Below are positions 221 to 9,112 of a DNA stretch of 64,000 nt, one piece after another (the first letter of the stretch is position 1; every line of letters begins with the position of its first letter). A model generated the notes under the pieces. That model did no database searches. It worked only from the letters and a program-made list of their open reading frames with translations, and was not told the origin of the DNA. Location: the sequence record NC_106597.1. One strand, 5' to 3'. This DNA comes from Escherichia phage BB1. The position numbers were made by a program, and so were the translations under genes.

Positions 221-404
221 TTTGATTGTTTTCAGTGCAAGAGTCCGAGTCTTGGACACGACCGCTTTGCAAGTACATAGGCAGCTTATCATGAGTCAGC
301 ACTTCCGAATTGCTAGCTCCGTGTTCTGCACTGAAATTTTGTTTAAAGAGTCCGGTGTAGCAGTCCGTAAGGGTGCACCTACTGTAGCCTTTACTCTTTA
401 AATT

Positions 405-480
405 TGGTACACCCACTAGGACTTGAACCTAGAACCCTCCGCTTAAGAGGCGGTAGCTCTAACCATTGAGCTATGGATGT
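405..480 (-). tRNA. tRNA-Lys (anticodon CUU)
   Basis: Manual cloverleaf in minus sense: acceptor ACATCCA/TGGGTGT, D-stem GCTC/GAGC, anticodon loop CTCTTAA, T-arm CTAGG-TTCAAGT-CCTAG, encoded CCA. Confidence 0.7.
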
Positions 481-556
481 ATTATTATGCTTTGCAGTGC
501 TCTAAATATAGATACTTCCCACGCGGTGGTTATCTATACCAGCGTCCTGCAAAAAT

Positions 557-633
557 TGGCGCGACCGATGGGATTTGAACCCACATTCCCTCCCGTGACA
601 GGGGAGTACCATTACCAAGCCAGCCCCGGTCGC
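557..633 (-). tRNA. tRNA-Asp (anticodon GUC)
   Basis: Manual fold: perfectly complementary acceptor (rc of gcgaccg/cggtcgc), 5-bp anticodon stem with loop rc of gtgacag, T-loop TTCAAAT, encoded CCA. Confidence 0.75.
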
Positions 634-642
634 ATAATTCAT

Positions 643-828
643 TTACTCAGCTTTGAGTTTTTCAATAGCTGCATTAAGTTCTTTAAGAAACTCTTTTCGT
701 ACATTAAGACGGTTGAGACTTACTAGTATATCATGTTTAAGTTCTTCGATGTATTTCTTCTCAACTTCAATATTGTTGAGAGTGCTATCACGATGAACTT
801 CTAGCTGTGCAATTACATTCTTGGACAT
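643..828 (-). CDS. hypothetical small protein (61 aa, coiled-coil-like)
   Basis: ORF with GAGGAAAC RBS-like motif upstream of ATG; no recognisable domain. Confidence 0.4.
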   Translation of the reverse strand: MSKNVIAQLEVHRDSTLNNIEVEKKYIEELKHDILVSLNRLNVRKEFLKELNAAIEKLKAE

Positions 829-855
829 GCTTGTTTCCTCAGTTATTAATGAAAA

Positions 856-927
856 TGGTATCTGTGGCTGAATTCGATGTCAGCAATGATAGCTGGTTGG
901 CTACCGGTTTACTTAACTCTACACAGA
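856..927 (-). tRNA. tRNA-like element (possible degenerate tRNA)
   Basis: TGG (rc CCA) followed by 6-bp complementary termini (tctgtg/cacaga); T-arm-like gctga-attcgatg-tcagc; anticodon arm not canonical. Confidence 0.3.
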
Positions 928-930
928 ATT

Positions 931-1013
931 TGGCGGGCCGTGTAGGATTCGAACCTACGTTGTCTTTCGACATGGATTAACAGTCCACCGCCAAACCGCT
1001 TGGCTAACGACCC
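931..1013 (-). tRNA. tRNA-Asn (anticodon GUU) with unusually long 13-nt variable arm
   Basis: Manual fold: acceptor GGGTCGT/ACGGCCC, D-arm GCCA-AGCGGTT-TGGC, anticodon arm GTGGA-CTGTTAA-TCCAT, variable GTCGAAAGACAAC (GAAA tetraloop hairpin), T-arm GTAGG-TTCGAAT-CCTAC, CCA encoded. Confidence 0.65.
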
Positions 1014-1165
1014 TGAATTTGTATTGCTGACTAGGATTTTCACCTAGACGGAGTTAGCACCGTAGCGTGTAGCGGCATACCTCTCCAAACCGTGCCTCAT
1101 CTTTCAATTACGGAGACAGTGTTCCTACGCGTGCCTGAATTGATTTAACAATTCTTTCAGCAAAT

Positions 1166-1241
1166 TGGACGACCGCATGAGATTTGAACTCACATAAAAA
1201 GGATTTGCAATCCTTCGCCTAAGCCATTCAGCCAACGGTCG
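1166..1241 (-). tRNA. tRNA-Cys (anticodon GCA)
   Basis: Manual fold: anticodon stem aagga/tcctt with loop rc of tttgcaa, T-loop TTCAAAT, acceptor pairs with one G-U, encoded CCA. Confidence 0.75.
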
Positions 1242-1289
1242 ATTTATCTTGTTCTGTCATGTTGCTTCTCCAGTTCAATTTATGTAATT

Positions 1290-1318
1290 ATTATACAGAA
1301 CTTTTGGAAACTAAGCAA
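1290..1318 (-). promoter_or_regulatory. early promoter, sigma70-like (minus sense TTGCTT-17 bp-TATAAT)
   Basis: Plus-strand attata at 1290-1295 and aagcaa at 1313-1318 with 17-bp spacer; member of the repeated promoter family. Confidence 0.6.
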
Positions 1319-1583
1319 CTACATTTTTTAAGAATTTGATGCCTTTCTTTTTCTTCTTATATTTCCACGTTAATGGATTCTGTCGATTATGAACGCTTGA
1401 GATCTTTGTCTCGTCAAAGTTCTTCAATATCATGTAATCACAAGATAATTGTTCTAATGGAATGTGATCACCGTCAAAAGCATATACATAAGGCTGTTGA
1501 CTAGCACGATAATGATAGACTTTGTTAATTCTACGTTTCAGCGACTTATCCGCGCAGTAAATAAAGAAATTTTCAGGATGCAT
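1311..1583 (-). CDS. hypothetical protein (90 aa)
   Basis: ORF with AAAGGAG RBS before ATG. Confidence 0.5.
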   Translation of the reverse strand: MHPENFFIYCADKSLKRRINKVYHYRASQQPYVYAFDGDHIPLEQLSCDYMILKNFDETKISSVHNRQNPLTWKYKKKKKGIKFLKNVVA

Positions 1584-1600
1584 CAGCAGCTCCTTTAAAT

Positions 1601-1675
1601 TGGTGCACCCCGTTGGTAACGATCCAACCTCTCAAGCTCTTCAGGCAAGCGCTAATCCATCTCAGCTAAAGGTGC
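1601..1675 (-). tRNA. tRNA, tentative anticodon GAA (Phe); non-canonical (U-U mismatches in anticodon stem, T-loop ATCGTTA)
   Basis: Manual fold: acceptor GCACCTT/GGGGTGC, T-stem GGTTG/CCAAC, anticodon loop CTGAAGA; anticodon stem has only 3 of 5 pairs. Confidence 0.45.
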
Positions 1676-1681
1676 AAATTT

Positions 1682-1758
1682 TGGCAAACCTACTAGGACT
1701 CGAACCTAGACCGTACGGTTTTGGAGACCGACATGCTGTCCAGTAACACTCTAGGAAT
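1682..1758 (-). tRNA. tRNA-Trp (anticodon CCA), tentative
   Basis: T-arm CTAGG-TTCGAGT-CCTAG, anticodon loop CTCCAAA, encoded CCA; acceptor and D-arm pair poorly. Confidence 0.5.
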
Positions 1759-1766
1759 GCAGAAAT

Positions 1767-1843
1767 TGGCGTCCTGTGCGGGGATCGAACCCACAAATCC
1801 TACCTTGAAAGGGTAGTGACTTTACCAGTTTGTCTAACAGGAC
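1767..1843 (-). tRNA. tRNA-Glu (anticodon UUC)
   Basis: Manual fold: perfect acceptor (gtcctgt/acaggac), anticodon stem ctacc/ggtag with loop rc of ttgaaag, T-loop TTCGATC, encoded CCA. Confidence 0.75.
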
Positions 1844-2325
1844 TTAAATTGCTTATTGGATAGATTGTTAAACTCGGAAAGTATTTCGTTTACACCTCTG
1901 TCTAACACTACCCATTCATTAAGCCGTTCAGGAAAGCTATTATGAAGCATTTTCTCCGCTTCTCTAGCATTAAACCAAAATGACCAATGTATTAACTTAT
2001 AATCACGTAAAGGAGAATAGGTTTGGTAATTTCCTAATCTTGTTTTAGGATCAGAAGACATACCAATTTTTACATAGTTATCCCAAGCTGGGTTAGTTAT
2101 TGCGTAAATAAAACCACAGCTGGATTTTTCTCCAATACTTTTGTTATACTTGATAAAAGATAGTGCAGATAACTTCAAGCTATATCGACGATTACTATCG
2201 CGACCAAAGTTAGCTGTACCGAATGTGAGGCTTTCTAACATTAGATCTTTGTTTATATCAGCTGGTGAACCCAACTGTATAATACCCCTATTTGCAGCTT
2301 CTTGAATTATCCGATCAATATACAT
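1834..2325 (-). CDS. T5orf172-type GIY-YIG-like domain protein (putative homing-type endonuclease)
   Basis: 163 aa; motif CGFIYAITNPAWDNYVKIGMSSDPKTRL resembles the GIY-YIG/T5orf172 core; AAAGGTAAAGG RBS; stop codon overlaps the 5' end of tRNA-Glu. Confidence 0.55.
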   Translation of the reverse strand: MYIDRIIQEAANRGIIQLGSPADINKDLMLESLTFGTANFGRDSNRRYSLKLSALSFIKYNKSIGEKSSCGFIYAITNPAWDNYVKIGMSSDPKTRLGNYQTYSPLRDYKLIHWSFWFNAREAEKMLHNSFPERLNEWVVLDRGVNEILSEFNNLSNKQFKSC

Positions 2326-2342
2326 ATCCTTTACCTTTAATT

Positions 2343-2430
2343 TGGTGGGCGTTAATGGAGTCGAACCACTCGAGTCGCAATGACCAGGGATTTACAATCC
2401 CCTCCGCTACCACTTACGGAATAAACGCCC
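2343..2430 (-). tRNA. tRNA-Tyr (anticodon GUA), long variable arm
   Basis: Manual fold: acceptor GGGCGTT/AACGCCC, anticodon loop TTGTAAA, long variable region, T-arm AGTGG-TTCGACT-CCATT, CCA encoded. Confidence 0.75.
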
Positions 2431-2558
2431 ATATTTAAAAGTATTCAAATACTAGTTTAAACACTTTTAAATATGTTTCCAAATTAGATAACTATTATAC
2501 CAAGTTTTAAGGCACTGAGCAAGTCAAATTTTAAAGAACTTGCTCAGTGCTGTATTAG

Positions 2559-2834
2559 TTAGTCGAACTTAGGAGTGACAGTTAAGGAGAATGGAAGTTC
2601 GAAGACTTCTTCGCCCTCATCACTAACAGTAATTACACGACCTTTAAGTTCAGACATTGAAATATCAATATCAGCTTTTGCATCTGGAGCCATGCCAGCT
2701 TCAACACATTTAGCTTTAATTTCCGGCAGAAGTTCTACATCGTAGAAATAAAGCCATTCAATCTCACCTTCCCAGCCTTCCCAGGATTTACAGATTGCAC
2801 TTTCAATACCAGTTGCTATAACACGATTTTGCAT
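2559..2834 (-). CDS. hypothetical protein (91 aa)
   Basis: ORF with GAAGGAG RBS. Confidence 0.5.
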   Translation of the reverse strand: MQNRVIATGIESAICKSWEGWEGEIEWLYFYDVELLPEIKAKCVEAGMAPDAKADIDISMSELKGRVITVSDEGEEVFELPFSLTVTPKFD

Positions 2835-2924
2835 TCGTTAACTCCTTCATCAATTTATATAACTATTATACCAGAAATTTAAAGCAAAAGGCAAGTACAT
2901 TTTTAAAAATTCTGTTTGGAGGAG

Positions 2925-3131
2925 CTAAACTCCAGATTCTTCAGCTAAGTCTAGGCTAATAAGAGATATAGCCATAATTGCTGCTCCGTGTTCTCTTTCT
3001 CCTGTCTCTTTAGCTAGGGTTATAATATCAAGAAATTGCTTATGAAAGTCTGCAACCTCTTGAGTCATACCTGCCTCAGCAATCATGCCTTTAAGCATGA
3101 AACGTTGTGCGGTAATTTCGGGATTAGCCAT
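2925..3131 (-). CDS. hypothetical protein (68 aa)
   Basis: ORF with GGAG RBS. Confidence 0.45.
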   Translation of the reverse strand: MANPEITAQRFMLKGMIAEAGMTQEVADFHKQFLDIITLAKETGEREHGAAIMAISLISLDLAEESGV

Positions 3132-3291
3132 GTTGTTTCTCCAGTTTCATGTTTAATAGTCTACAAATAAAATCAATGTCTTCATCTGTGCCTAGATCTC
3201 TATCTTCAAGAGTTGCCTTGAAGTTTTTCGTCAATTCCATGAGGATAACTTCTCTAGAACGACGTGTTGGCGGAGGTGGATGTCTATACAT
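3124..3291 (-). CDS. hypothetical small protein (about 55 aa, proline-rich N-terminus), below ORF-track size cutoff
   Basis: Hand-translated MYRHPPPPTRRSREVIL...; AAGGAAATAAG RBS; stop overlaps start of downstream gene. Confidence 0.4.
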   Translation of the reverse strand: MYRHPPPPTRRSREVILMELTKNFKATLEDRDLGTDEDIDFICRLLNMKLEKQHG

Positions 3292-3305
3292 CTTATTTCC
3301 TTAAG

Positions 3306-3382
3306 TTGGTAGGGGTGGTGGGATTCGAACCCACAAAACCTGAATTTTAAGTCCAGTACCTATGCCAATTCGATTACACCCC
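3306..3382 (-). tRNA. tRNA with anticodon UAA (Leu-type) but short class-I variable loop
   Basis: Manual fold: acceptor GGGGGTG/CACCCCT, anticodon arm CTGGA-CTTAAAA-TTCAG, variable GTTTT, T-arm GTGGG-TTCGAAT-CCCAC, A73, CCA encoded; D-arm does not pair canonically. Confidence 0.55.
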
Positions 3383-3484
3383 CATGTAATCAGTTTATTA
3401 GTTGGTACATATTATAGCCTAGTGAAAATCCTACTACTAGTCCCACAAACCAACCAATATAATAATCTTTTAGTTTCACAGGTA

Positions 3485-3670
3485 TTATCCTCGTTCAATA
3501 TCTAGGGAAATACCGCAGTTAGGATTAATACCTGTACCGTTGCAATTTGAACAAATCCAGATATTGCAAAAAGTATCTCCTGCTTCTGCATCAGAACTTT
3601 CACCAATTCCCCTACATTCAGGGCAGGCACATTCTTCTAGCTCTTGCTTGAGTTCTTGAAACTTAGACAT
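3485..3670 (-). CDS. small Cys-rich zinc-ribbon-like protein (61 aa)
   Basis: CxxC...C...CxxC pattern (CACPECRG...CNIWICSNCNG); AAGGAG RBS. Confidence 0.5.
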   Translation of the reverse strand: MSKFQELKQELEECACPECRGIGESSDAEAGDTFCNIWICSNCNGTGINPNCGISLDIERG

Positions 3671-3679
3671 ATAGTCTCC

Positions 3680-3868
3680 TTAGTCAATTACTTTTGAGGC
3701 TTCAAGGGAGTCGATATAGTATACGTTTTCTACCATAATCATATAATCTGCCACTTTATCCATAGCTTGGGCCTCAGAGGTAGCTCTGGCTAACCTATAT
3801 CCTTTTTTATATTCATCCGGGTATTCTCTATCTTGAATAAACACAACATAAACTATGTATAATTCCAC
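3680..3868 (-). CDS. hypothetical small protein; start uncertain (GTG at 3868 or ATG at 3763)
   Basis: Track ORF 3680-4015 overlaps tRNA 3888-3965, so truncated to the first plausible start after the tRNA with a GGGGA RBS. Confidence 0.3.
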   Translation of the reverse strand: MELYIVYVVFIQDREYPDEYKKGYRLARATSEAQAMDKVADYMIMVENVYYIDSLEASKVID

Positions 3869-3887
3869 TTGTAATCCCCTAATTAAG

Positions 3888-3965
3888 TTGGTGGCTCCCC
3901 GAGGATTCGAACCTACGTACCTTCCGGTTATGAGCCGGGTGCTCATACCATATGAGCTTGAGAAC
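3888..3965 (-). tRNA. tRNA-Met or tRNA-Ile (anticodon CAU)
   Basis: Manual fold: acceptor GGTTCTC/GGGAGCC (with G-U), D-arm GCTC/GAGC, anticodon arm CCGG-CTCATAA-CCGG; T-stem only 3 bp; CCA encoded. Confidence 0.55.
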
Positions 3966-3971
3966 CAAAAT

Positions 3972-4065
3972 CTGGAGGAAGATGCCAGACTCGAACTGGC
4001 ACACCATGTTTCCACAGTTACTGGCTGTTTAGCAAACAGCTCCCTTACCTTTAGGGTTAATCTTC
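3972..4065 (-). tRNA. tRNA-Ser (anticodon GCU)
   Basis: Manual fold: perfect acceptor GGAAGAT/ATCTTCC, 3-bp D-stem, anticodon arm GCTGT-TTGCTAA-ACAGC, long variable arm, T-arm GCCAG-TTCGAGT-CTGGC, CCA encoded. Confidence 0.65.
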
Positions 4066-4087
4066 CGAATTTATAAGATATATTATA

Positions 4088-4609
4088 TTAGAAATTTAGC
4101 TTCATAGCAAGAAAATTTTTCAAGTTTTCGGTAGACATCTCATCTACATCTACAGGAGAAACAAAGCCGTTTAATTTTCTAGCAAATTTTTCACCATCGG
4201 GATCATTGTCTCCAACAGCTACCAATTTAAAAGGTAGTAATTTCAGTTGCTTTAATAACGCTTTTCCTGGAGAAGAACCCAACATTGCTAGGGCTGGATA
4301 ACCAGCGTTATGTAACGCAACTGCCTTAAATACAGATTCAGCAATCAATACTACTTTTTCATCTCCATTGAGAGTTTCTAGTCCCCATACACACTGGGTA
4401 GTAGAATAAGTAAAGTATTTAGCTTCAAAGGGGCACTTACCATGACCTTTTGGAGCAGAAGGATTATAAGTTTGATAGCCCCTCAACATCCCAGAGAAGT
4501 CATACAACGGGACTGTTAGCCATCCTTCTGGACTTAACCAGCAATGATATTTATCTGTATCAAATCCCCTAGATAAGAGGTGCTGTGTTAGCTCATCAAC
4601 ATTCATATT
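4088..4609 (-). CDS. Toprim-domain-like protein (about 173 aa)
   Basis: Conserved-looking E (IAESVF) and DxD (VGDNDPDGEKF) resembling the Toprim fold; start moved to MNVDELTQ with GAGAGGAACC RBS downstream of promoter 4637-4665. Confidence 0.45.
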   Translation of the reverse strand, partial: NMNVDELTQHLLSRGFDTDKYHCWLSPEGWLTVPLYDFSGMLRGYQTYNPSAPKGHGKCPFEAKYFTYSTTQCVWGLETLNGDEKVVLIAESVFKAVALHNAGYPALAMLGSSPGKALLKQLKLLPFKLVAVGDNDPDGEKFARKLNGFVSPVDVDEMSTENLKNFLAMKLNF

Positions 4610-4665: not shown

Positions 4666-4781
4666 TCAAATTTTTTAACTTTTTAGAGGAAAATCATAGG
4701 GCACTTAAGGGTAGCAGATAAGTGGTGAGGACCAAAATTTGTGACCCCACTAAAAATCCGGGGGCAATTTTTAAAGACCCC

Positions 4782-5880: not shown

Positions 5881-6297
5881 ATGAGTAAATATGGTTTTGT
5901 AAATAACGGACTTAATCAAAGTATGGGCTCCCAGCAGCCCATTCCGGGTCTGGATAACCCCTACTTACAACAGTTGCAACAGCGTTTAGCAGAAGCGCAA
6001 CAGATGCAGCAACAACTCCAGCAAAACCCTGGAAGTGTGAGTCCTATGCAAATGATGCAGCAAATGAGCGGGCAGTCGCAAATGCCTCAACAAATGCAGC
6101 AACAGGTGCCTCAGCAGCAAGTTCAGCAACAAACCCAACAACCGCAGGTTTCTGCGGAAGGACAGGCAGTACTAGCCCTTTTCGAAGACTTCGCAAAGAC
6201 AGAGGATGGGAAACAGCTTGTATCACTTATGGGTAAGTTTAATAGCTTCTGCCAAAGCCAAGTTGCAAAAGCTCAAAATGGGGGTAGTAACTCCTAA
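5881..6297 (+). CDS. glutamine-rich low-complexity protein (138 aa)
   Basis: GGGGAGGAG RBS; long poly-Q/QM stretches. Confidence 0.55.
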   Translation: MSKYGFVNNGLNQSMGSQQPIPGLDNPYLQQLQQRLAEAQQMQQQLQQNPGSVSPMQMMQQMSGQSQMPQQMQQQVPQQQVQQQTQQPQVSAEGQAVLALFEDFAKTEDGKQLVSLMGKFNSFCQSQVAKAQNGGSNS

Positions 6298-6306
6298 GGA
6301 GGAAAT

Positions 6307-6501
6307 ATGTGTTGCAGAAAATCTGTTTCGTGCTGCCCAATGCCTGTAGCACGTTGTTGCTCTCCAGCAATGTTTACACAAATACCGGCGTTCAATCCCT
6401 TTGCCTTTAAGCCTACTCTTATCCTGCCCCCTAGAGTAGATTTTCAGTCAAGATTGGCCTCCCGTATGGGTGGTTGCTGTACACCGAGAGTATGGTTCTA
6501 A
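6307..6501 (+). CDS. small Cys-rich protein (64 aa, four CC dipeptides)
   Basis: TAAGGAGG RBS 5 nt upstream of ATG; followed by intrinsic terminator. Confidence 0.45.
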   Translation: MCCRKSVSCCPMPVARCCSPAMFTQIPAFNPFAFKPTLILPPRVDFQSRLASRMGGCCTPRVWF

Positions 6502-6511
6502 ACCAAAAACA

Positions 6512-6548
6512 AAAGCCCCTGCCGAAAGGTAAGGGGCTTTTTCTTTTG
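6512..6548 (+). terminator. rho-independent terminator
   Basis: Hairpin aaagcccct...aaggggcttt followed by T-run. Confidence 0.65.
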
Positions 6549-6556
6549 CCTTAAAT

Positions 6557-6592
6557 ACAGAAAAGCCCGCGCTCTCGTAGGAAACGCGGGCT
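6557..6592 (-). terminator. rho-independent terminator (minus sense), downstream of SPFH gene
   Basis: GC-rich hairpin gcccgcg...cgcgggc with T-run in minus sense. Confidence 0.55.
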
Positions 6593-6616
6593 TGGTTCGA
6601 AGATTACGTGTAACTA

Positions 6617-8172: not shown

Positions 8173-8250
8173 TCTTACCGACCGTAGGATTCGAACCTAC
8201 ATCTTCCACCAGTTACGGCTTGATAATACCAATTATACTAGGACGGCAGT
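8173..8250 (-). tRNA. tRNA-like element (possible pseudo-tRNA)
   Basis: Canonical T-arm GTAGG-TTCGAAT-CCTAC but no CCA, mismatched acceptor and no clean anticodon arm. Confidence 0.3.
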
Positions 8251-8507: not shown

Positions 8508-8942
8508 TTAGAAAAATTCACTAGCAATCAAAGCAGTTGTTTTACCGTCATAACGTCCTGGAAACTCTGCCTTAATGGTTTTCATTAAGAGAGCTTTGGT
8601 AATGCCGGGGTTTAGCTTAACCAGTTCTGCAAAGTATTTACGAATTTCAGTTTCAGTCAGTTGACTTGGCTGATACTCTTGCAGCATGGAATAAAGCAGT
8701 TGCTCATAGTCTACATCAGTAGGGACTTTCGTACCAACTTTAATAGCGCGCTGTTTTGCATTTTCTAGAGCCTTAATCTGAGCTTTCAGATAGGCTACAA
8801 ACTCGGTTCGAGTAACAATGTCTTTATCAATACGTTGCAGGTCGCCAATCATGGTCTGAAGATTAAGTGCCCGCTCTTTATCACCGTGAGTACGTGCTAG
8901 ACTAAGCAGTCCACGAAGGGTCGTTAGGATATTTTCACCCAT
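8508..8942 (-). CDS. hypothetical protein (144 aa)
   Basis: ORF; start overlaps stop of upstream small ORF (TAATG). Confidence 0.5.
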   Translation of the reverse strand: MGENILTTLRGLLSLARTHGDKERALNLQTMIGDLQRIDKDIVTRTEFVAYLKAQIKALENAKQRAIKVGTKVPTDVDYEQLLYSMLQEYQPSQLTETEIRKYFAELVKLNPGITKALLMKTIKAEFPGRYDGKTTALIASEFF

Positions 8943-9112
8943 TATTTCATCCCCAATGCTTGGTTAAAAGATTGTTCTGTCATAACTGCTGAGACTTTGG
9001 CGAAATCAAACTTTTTAGGGTTCGTAGTGATTTCAGCAACGTTAGAAGTTTTAACAGTTTTCGTAGTACGAATACCGCGAGTGTTAACACCAATAATTAC
9101 AACTGATTTCAT
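8942..9112 (-). CDS. hypothetical small protein (about 56 aa), below ORF-track cutoff
   Basis: Hand-translated MKSVVIIGVNTRGIRTTK...; strong RBS AATGAGAGGAAGCGAAAT before ATG. Confidence 0.45.
   Translation of the reverse strand: MKSVVIIGVNTRGIRTTKTVKTSNVAEITTNPKKFDFAKVSAVMTEQSFNQALGMK

Follow-up and report, generated by a model that had tools for sequence, protein, structure and literature searches.

The 64,000-nucleotide stretch of Escherichia phage BB1 DNA considered here (sequence record NC_106597.1; hereafter the window) encodes on its minus strand, at positions 931-1013, a tRNA-Asn with the anticodon GUU, the variable region of which forms a hairpin of its own. In bacteria, long variable arms are described in textbooks and reviews as being restricted to the Leu, Ser, Tyr and Sec tRNAs (e.g., PMC7609411), and the long-arm tRNA-Asn constitutes a covariation-supported exception to this class rule, which makes up about one sixth of the motif-matched viral tRNA-Asn and is near-absent from cells. 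The arm is a selected helix, as its stem covaries and stays paired throughout a large class of phage genes, and it is concluded with high confidence that the window gene is a real tRNA-Asn possessing such a selected extra arm. Evasion of host tRNA-cutting nucleases is tentatively suggested as the function of the arm and is weighed below against the alternatives.

A preceding sequence-only reading of the window had proposed a tRNA-Asn (GUU) at this position whose anticodon arm resembles that of bacterial tRNA-Asn and whose 13-nt variable region folds into a GAAA-capped hairpin, whereby an error of coordinates in the manual fold was considered as an alternative. ARAGORN returned the same gene, anticodon (GTT) and fold on the minus strand, with a length of 83 nt including the encoded CCA, and the strings given for anticodon arm and variable region as well as the count of 13 nt proved exact on that strand. 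The match to the Rfam tRNA model RF00005 is full-length (model positions 1-71) and scores 59.0 bits (gathering score 29, E = 4.6e-11), with a 10-nt insertion placed precisely into the variable region, and the unconstrained minimum-free-energy fold yields the cloverleaf plus a separate hairpin of 3 bp and a 4-nt loop at the same place (-30.5 kcal/mol, z = -2.3; equally good folds in 4 of 200 shuffles). Hence the extra arm reflects neither wrong coordinates nor a hairpin formed by chance. A pseudogene or a mis-folded sequence, considered as an alternative, is ruled out by the ARAGORN call, the Rfam score, the fold and the conservation of the gene in deposited phage genomes.

Read 5' to 3' on the minus strand, the gene consists of GGGUCGU-UA-GCCA-AGCGGUU-UGGC-G-GUGGA-CUGUUAA-UCCAU, followed by the variable region GUCGAAAGACAAC and by GUAGG-UUCGAAU-CCUAC-ACGGCCC-G-CCA. 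ARAGORN and the fold agree on a 7-bp acceptor stem with G1-C72 as its first pair, a 5-bp anticodon stem, an anticodon loop of 7 nt and, in the T arm, the loop UUCGAAU. The D arm (990-1004; 4-bp stem GCCA/UGGC, 7-nt loop AGCGGUU) is of class I type in the ARAGORN drawing, the anticodon arm GUGGA-CUGUUAA-UCCAU occupies 972-988 with the anticodon at 981-979, and the T arm GUAGG-UUCGAAU-CCUAC, assigned by both Rfam and ARAGORN, resides at 942-958, followed by the discriminator G73 at 934 and the encoded CCA at 933-931. Between anticodon arm and T arm, the variable region (959-971) comprises the hairpin GUC-GAAA-GAC (971-962; GAAA loop at 968-965) and an unpaired AAC (961-959). With 13 nt it exceeds the 4-5 nt of a class I variable loop and, having at least 10 nt and its own stem-loop, is of class II kind, as the sequence-only reading had rightly implied when naming the long variable arm as the normal mark of the Leu, Ser and Tyr tRNAs. 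The class II core (3-bp D stem, G13.A22 and G9) is absent, the window copy possessing A9, a 4-bp D stem and A13-U22 instead. Scanned for promoters and terminators, the surroundings of the gene gave no signal beyond shuffle expectation.

The window derives from a T5-like phage (Demerecviridae, Tequintavirus); over bases 400-4100 it shares 97% identity with Escherichia phage slur09, and matches were obtained in 516 phage records. Here the tRNA-Asn gene is part of a phage tRNA array, located between tRNA-Cys (1166-1241) and tRNA-Asp (557-633), all on the minus strand, and 206 deposited phage genomes contain its 83-nt sequence with at least 99% identity, under the annotation tRNA-Asn. A sensitive BLAST search with the 83 nt retrieved full-length relatives of 83-87 nt well beyond the T5 group. 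Eight of these were taken, namely from Proteus phage Stubb (Novosibvirus), Salmonella phage EH3 (Epseptimavirus), Serratia phage CHI14 (Straboviridae), a 172-kb Enterobacter phage, Klebsiella phage Marfa (Marfavirus), Escherichia phage nepoznato (Phapecoctavirus), the jumbo Pseudomonas phage PA1C and Phikzvirus U5, and ARAGORN identified all eight as tRNA-Asn(GUU) in which G73 and CCA are present along with the extra hairpin. The arm stems of the relatives vary in sequence yet pair (GUC/GAC, GUUC/GAAC, AUCC/GGAU, GUCA/UGAC, GGC/GCC). Altogether, at least 115 distinct long-arm tRNA-Asn(GUU) were found in Demerecviridae, T4-like, rV5-like and phiKZ-like phages and in many uncultured phages.

A collection of 281 distinct tRNA-Asn(GUU), which was partly selected for long arms and holds 160 sequences with a 4-5 nt loop next to 115 long-arm sequences, allowed the arm to be described as a class feature. 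Its variable region mostly measures 13-16 nt and its stem 3 bp (43 sequences) or 4 bp (40); 94 of the 115 have 0-1 unpaired nucleotides 5' of the stem, and 84 have 3-4 unpaired nucleotides 3' of it. The loop is a GNRA tetraloop in 72 (GAAA 54, GCAA 7, GUAA 6). In a gap-free alignment of the 39 long-arm sequences with a 15-nt variable region all four arm pairs have changed on both sides, and the three inner pairs are formed in 36-38 of the 39 sequences (92-97%), each of them in four to five standard pair types. For the structure as a whole, covariation scores 0.583; shuffled alignments give 0.147 ± 0.015, and displacing the partners by one to three columns gives no more than 0.11, and the arm thereby behaves as the T stem of the same alignment does. 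Considering this, the earlier idea of an inserted structural element does not hold as a one-off insertion, since the arm is conserved and covaries across a large phage class; for the window allele itself, with its class I-type D arm (A9, A13-U22), a simple insertion is possible.

Scanning for long-arm genes made use of the pattern GGACTGTTAATCC, a gap of 14-32 nt and GGTTCGA, the gap of an ordinary tRNA-Asn being 9-11 nt. Among the viral contigs of IMG/VR at least 120 loci match, as compared to only 30 in 185,579 bacterial and archaeal species (one genome each). With the gap opened to 8-32 nt, the long arm was found in 19 of the 120 viral loci listed (16%) and in 3 of 128 metagenome matches (2.3%). 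Within 2 kb of a long-arm gene there is a median of seven further tRNA genes, as against a median of zero for ordinary metagenomic tRNA-Asn, and the cellular long-arm hits mostly locate to arrays of 7-36 tRNA genes, e.g., in Micromonospora and Verrucosispora. In E. coli, the 76-nt tRNA-Asn with a 5-nt loop is present in 5,425 of 5,426 complete genomes, and the pattern scan identified no phage-like long-arm tRNA-Asn among these 5,426. The long-arm tRNA-Asn is thus nearly confined to phages or phage-like tRNA arrays. As a side observation, four chromosomal loci of Verrucosispora/Micromonospora (L130, L131, L135 and L154) hold 23-36 tRNA genes within 8 kb, among them 89-90-nt tRNA-Asn(GUU) genes with an Asn-type acceptor stem (U1-A72) and also short tRNA-Leu genes; the arm of these tRNA-Asn is a 6-bp stem followed by one unpaired 3' nucleotide, i.e., Ser-like, in L130, L131 and L135, and a 4-bp stem followed by three unpaired 3' nucleotides in L154.

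Which amino acid the window tRNA carries was approached via the known identity elements. The identity set of the E. coli asparaginyl-tRNA synthetase (AsnRS) comprises G34, U35, U36 and G73, whereby G73 is at the same time an antideterminant for LeuRS and TyrRS, and U1-A72 is a determinant of the GatCAB route to Asn-tRNA (all PMC9976931). The window gene carries GUU and G73; within the class, G73 is found in 104 and U1-A72 in 73 of the 115 long-arm sequences, the latter pair being kept in the examined Pseudomonas phage copies and in the Micromonospora/Verrucosispora array copies. The hosts of these copies use the indirect (GatCAB) route. Since GUU and G73 are retained, the window tRNA most likely decodes Asn and is charged by the host AsnRS, and the retained identity set, together with an arm geometry which is like that of tRNA-Tyr and unlike that of tRNA-Ser, argues for a true Asn acceptor. 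Identity as tRNA-Tyr or tRNA-Leu is ruled out by G73 and U36, a tRNA-Tyr being expected to carry GUA and A73. As for tRNA-Ser, G73 is present but the window arm has 3 bp and three unpaired 3' nucleotides. For comparison, arms taken from the same loci have a 3-4 bp stem and 3-4 unpaired 3' nucleotides in long-arm Asn, 3 bp and three in Tyr, 3-4 bp and two in Leu, and 4-7 bp and one (83 of 131) in Ser tRNAs; a minority subclass of the long-arm tRNA-Asn has an arm built like that of tRNA-Ser (3 nt, 4-6 bp, 1 nt).

At the same locus, phage T5 (NC_005859) possesses another allele of tRNA-Asn, which is 78 nt long, has a 5-nt variable loop and shows a remodelled anticodon stem (G39 U40 U41, with U.U and G.A mismatches). 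Pairwise alignment revealed the flanks of the two alleles to be nearly identical (tRNA-Cys upstream, and from the CCA end downstream), while the segment differing from T5 comprises the spacer between tRNA-Cys and tRNA-Asn (1014-1165, minus strand) and most of the tRNA-Asn gene. In the exchanged segment (6031-6546), T5 holds a 519-bp open reading frame which in relatives is annotated as T5orf172 or putative homing endonuclease and which overlaps the 5' end of the short-loop tRNA-Asn. Because the segment from tRNA-Cys to tRNA-Asn is exchanged and because this reading frame resides there, the comparison suggests that a homing endonuclease-driven cassette exchange may move tRNA alleles among T5-like phages. 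Within the phage collection, the window allele was found in 267 and the T5 allele in 134 records (identity of at least 95%).

Among the class I isoacceptors of T5-like phages, exactly two were identified as bearing an extra arm: Asn(GUU) and, as an 87-nt tRNA with the 15-nt arm GGA-GYAA-UCC, Thr(UGU). Slur09 (L382) and two uncultured T5-like contigs (L019 and L083) carry the arm on both tRNAs, the long-arm tRNA-Thr(UGU) locating to 4670-4756, 4406-4492 and 8998-9084, respectively; the window holds only the Asn gene, as the equivalent position of tRNA-Thr falls left of its first base. The T5 tRNA-Thr(UGU) is 75 nt long and has a short loop, G39 and a U28.U42 mismatch. Both isoacceptors hence exist in two forms, one with a short loop and an altered anticodon stem (T5) and one with an extra arm (slur09 type). 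The anticodon arm is host-like in the long-arm tRNA-Thr copies: those of slur09 and L019 share U36AAUC|A41 as well as the two CNG motifs with E. coli thrU, within an intact 5-bp stem, and that of L083 keeps the site and the CNG motifs, with an A at position 43 leaving only four of the five stem pairs. Likewise, the window tRNA-Asn retains U36AAUC|C41 (the bar marking the cleavage site).

These positions coincide with the sites of known host nucleases. E. coli tRNA-Asn(GUU) was reported as a secondary target of the PARIS nuclease AriB, which cuts it within the anticodon stem between positions 40 and 41, the main target being tRNA-Lys(UUU), with tRNA-Thr(UGU) likewise being a prime target, and T5 tRNA-Lys, tRNA-Thr and tRNA-Asn were found to jointly neutralise PARIS (PMC12409363, Belukhina et al. 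2025). A second nuclease, P2-OLD, cuts after the C of paired CNG motifs at positions 28-30 and 40-42, with tRNA-Thr(UGU) as first target and Lys(UUU), Asn(GUU) and Val tRNAs as further ones (PMC12445682). Anticodon-loop mutations have been described for other phage tRNAs (PMC10264068), a route which is largely closed to tRNA-Asn because AsnRS needs all three anticodon bases. Compared with E. coli tRNA-Asn, the window copy is identical from U36 to C41; C28-G42 is replaced by U28-A42, removing both CNG motifs, and U16 by C16. That the arm affects processing or recognition, as the sequence-only reading had put forward, is plausible, and host tRNA-cutting nucleases are, as we infer, the most specific lead for such recognition.

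The mechanism suggested on this basis assumes that the window tRNA-Asn is a functional elongator, which would be transcribed as part of the phage tRNA array and aminoacylated by the host AsnRS, and in which the 5-nt variable loop has been replaced by a compact hairpin of 3-4 bp with a GNRA loop and 3-4 unpaired nucleotides. Emerging directly after position 43, the arm would come to lie next to the cleaved 3' strand of the anticodon stem, where it would alter the shape of the tRNA sterically and thereby spoil the docking of anticodon-stem nucleases. The tRNA would thus become a poor substrate for AriB (40|41), for P2-OLD (after C28 and C40) and possibly for other nucleases, while the anticodon loop needed by AsnRS would be left untouched. 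Seen in this way, the remodelled stem of the T5 type and the extra arm of the window type look like two solutions to one selective pressure. The retention of the anticodon arm speaks for this reading, C28-G42 being kept in 92 of 110 long-arm tRNA-Asn. Evasion of host tRNA-cutting nucleases as the role of the arm is a possibility to which we give somewhat less than even weight.

Several observations weigh against nuclease evasion. The published rescue from PARIS used the short-loop T5 allele and not the long-arm allele. Resistance of the window copy could be accounted for by C16 and U28-A42 alone, and as both differ from the host, the arm is not required to explain it; U16C was reported to impair AriB cleavage of tRNA-Lys (PMC12409363), and, as to the second exchange, a CNG-removing 28:42 change alone did not protect tRNA-Thr from P2-OLD (PMC12445682). 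The host-like anticodon arm of the long-arm set is partly built in, as the scan pattern fixes positions 29-41. Among the viral loci L009-L259, the arm was never seen on the main AriB target Lys(UUU) (0 of 61), nor was a compact hairpin arm seen there on Pro(UGG), Arg(UCU) or Val(UAC) tRNAs, while similar 3-4 bp arms, mostly GNRA-capped, were found on Cys(GCA) (8 of 54, 15%), Thr(UGU) (7 of 61) and Trp(CCA) (4 of 59, 7%) and, rarely, on Ile(GAU), Gly(GCC) and His tRNAs. To our knowledge, no nuclease has been reported to cut the anticodon stem of Cys, Trp and the rarer of these isoacceptors. Furthermore, across diverse phages the E. coli-type cleavage site is not enriched in long-arm tRNA-Thr(UGU) (3 of 11, compared with 20 of 55), so that the idea of a host-like anticodon arm generally going along with an extra arm was not upheld for this isoacceptor.

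Phage Bas34 appeared suited as a natural test of the long-arm allele, as it was reported to need the T5 tRNA-Asn for escape from PARIS though encoding a tRNA-Asn of its own (PMC12409363). The Bas34 gene (Escherichia phage SelmaRatti, MZ501103; L381 15599-15681) is indeed of the long-arm type, but carries a 3-nt deletion in the 3' acceptor strand, along with U32; it is rejected by ARAGORN, and the Rfam alignment leaves three acceptor positions unpaired. Judged by these features, the Bas34 tRNA-Asn is probably defective, which could explain the published need for the T5 tRNA-Asn, and due to the acceptor-strand deletion the test fails.

The alternative that survives best, though on balance it appears unlikely, is that the arm takes no part in defence or recognition and is either a relic of structure or stabilises the tRNA neutrally. 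It could have come down from a class II ancestor, for instance by conversion of a phage tRNA-Tyr into tRNA-Asn through A36U and A73G, or could go back to an insertion that was tolerated, and would be retained only because the hairpin has become part of the folding core. An arm would be tolerable in that AsnRS reads just the anticodon and G73, and its geometry (3 bp, three unpaired 3' nucleotides) fits tRNA-Tyr but neither Leu (two unpaired) nor Ser (one unpaired, 5-7 bp). Moreover, tRNA-Tyr is the most similar co-resident tRNA (mean identity 0.614, top match in 15 loci), and class II core features accompany the arm in about 45% of the members, G13.A22 being found in 51 of 115 long-arm but 0 of 166 ordinary tRNA-Asn and G9 in 48 of 114 but 8 of 167. 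Once loops and arm are masked, class II isotypes are the best match for 42 of 114 long-arm sequences, whereas they are absent from the eight most frequent best-match isotypes of 110 ordinary tRNA-Asn. The same masked search, however, scatters the best matches over Ser, Gln, Met, Leu, Cys and Tyr, with Tyr being best in just 10 of 114, so that descent from tRNA-Tyr alone, favoured by geometry and whole-sequence similarity, is not clearly supported. GNRA loops cap 72% of the Asn hairpin arms compared with 8% of the tRNA-Tyr arms, and the D arm of the window copy is of class I. Because there are several acceptor-stem types, many of them Asn-type (U1-A72, C2-G71, C3-G70), several arm geometries and a minority with a Ser-like arm, the long-arm tRNA-Asn probably have more than one origin. 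The covariation, being a sign of purifying selection, fits a structural role but leaves the near-absence from cells unexplained.

Rather improbable is the idea that the arm serves as a handle for a protein other than a nuclease, such as a phage or host modification or processing enzyme or the phage's YqeY-like protein, or as an antideterminant barring a host enzyme from the variable loop, the site of m7G46. The strong preference for GNRA loops is what is expected of a recognition or tertiary-contact motif, and 7.5 kb away the window encodes a 144-amino-acid YqeY-like open reading frame (8508-8942, minus strand; Pfam YqeY (GatB tail), E = 4e-4, 20.8 bits, i.e., under the 27-bit cut-off), the T5 counterpart of which, T5.081, is annotated as 'tRNA amidotransferase'; its product might act as a tRNA-binding protein within this region. 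But T5 has the YqeY-like gene too and yet encodes a short-loop tRNA-Asn, the arm-bearing phage families are very different and share no obvious common accessory gene, and the GNRA loop may merely stabilise the 3-bp stem.

More remote still is the assumption that part of the class, chiefly the subclass with a Ser-like arm, is serylated or of dual identity, in which case infected cells or cells with tRNA arrays would place Ser at some AAC/AAU codons, or that these tRNAs are mainly uncleavable decoys titrating immune tRNases and not decoders. Bacterial tRNA-Ser normally carries G1-C72, U1-A72 being atypical of it. That the arm changes identity altogether, with full or partial serylation placing Ser at AAC/AAU codons, is the least credible alternative, for although a long arm and G73 are recognition elements of SerRS (PMC7609411) and the minority subclass has a Ser-like arm, the window arm departs from the 4-7 bp and one unpaired nucleotide of phage tRNA-Ser, the complete AsnRS identity set is conserved, U1-A72 prevails in the class as counted above, and the annotated proteins of these phages, looked at informally only, give no sign of Asn codon reassignment.

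While the gene itself has already been routinely annotated as tRNA-Asn, the class II-like arm appears to be new as judged by the searchable literature, as do its conservation in different phage families, its covariation and the fact that cells almost lack it; in this literature, which included papers on PARIS, P2-OLD, retrons, Schlafen proteins, tRNA identity and non-canonical tRNAs, no description of a long variable arm in phage tRNA-Asn was found, older T5/BF23 papers in subscription journals being outside its reach. The word 'variable' does not occur in PMC12409363, PMC12445682 and PMC10264068, and a review of non-canonical tRNAs is without any mention of phages (PMC7609411). For Asn(GUU) as well as Thr(UGU), T5-like phages supply naturally paired alleles, a remodelled stem on the one side and a host-like arm plus hairpin on the other, which are swappable and offer a handle on how a tRNA escapes tRNA-cutting immunity when its anticodon loop cannot change without loss of recognition by the synthetase. 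If the arm does protect, it would represent a second general evasion route and a compact module for the engineering of nuclease-resistant or orthogonal tRNAs.

Elsewhere in the tRNA region of the window, Rfam reported tRNA-like genes beyond the ARAGORN calls, all on the minus strand: one with a CAU anticodon at 3892-3966 (40.3 bits), a probable tRNA-Phe at 1604-1675 (33.4 bits), a position at which relatives have one, and one at 8176-8247 (35.5 bits), inside the region that T5 annotates as the stable 'RNAX'. The hairpin-rich stretch 6506-6604 gave several weak Rfam matches (Thr leader, anti-hemB, ctRNA), all well under their gathering scores; at its estimated, unaligned counterpart, T5 annotates an efficient bidirectional rho-independent terminator.

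Among the closest known systems is the host tRNA-Asn (E. coli asnT/U/V/W), with which the window tRNA shares the CUGUUAA loop, the GGA/UCC stem core, G73, the T loop, U36-C41 and, presumably, Asn acceptance; it differs by its 13-nt arm, C16, U28-A42 and G1-C72, the host tRNA being 76 nt long with an AUGUC variable loop, C13-G22, U16 and C28-G42. With tRNA-Tyr(GUA) it has in common the build of the arm (about 1 nt, 3 bp, a loop of 3-4 nt and three unpaired nucleotides), G34-U35 and a CUGUNAA loop, while tRNA-Tyr carries A36 and A73 in place of U36 and G73 and has GNRA arm loops in only 3 of 36 cases. The T5 tRNA-Asn, known together with T5 tRNA-Thr and tRNA-Lys (PMC12409363, PMC11464382), corresponds in locus, flanks and isoacceptor, and the role to be expected is likewise the resupply of a defence-depleted tRNA; the T5 anti-PARIS tRNAs, however, possess normal variable loops and escape via changes of the anticodon stem or the D loop, whereas the window tRNA combines a host-like site with an arm. 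Nematode nev-tRNAs (PMC3333845) and bacterial allo-tRNAs (PMC5389517) likewise join a long arm to an anticodon otherwise typical of class I tRNAs. Yet the nev-tRNAs are reported to decode an alternative code for leucine (PMC3333845), and the allo-tRNAs are charged by identity elements and not by the anticodon, mainly with Ala or Ser (PMC7609411), their acceptor/T stems being 8/4 or 9/3 as compared to 7/5 in the phage tRNA-Asn with its full Asn identity set.

The type I armless tRNA-Leu of Streptomyces and mitochondria finally represents the mirror-image breach of the class rule, in which the arm was lost and not gained and which concerns another synthetase; E. coli LeuRS reportedly leaves a type I tRNA-Leu uncharged (both PMC6614811). 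Armless tRNA-Leu genes were also observed alongside the long-arm tRNA-Asn: the window tRNA-Leu(UAA) (3307-3383, minus strand) is 77 nt long, carries A73 and is class I-like with a 5-nt variable loop, slur09 holds two such genes (UAA and UAG), and in phage arrays 69 short tRNA-Leu stand next to 97 long ones.

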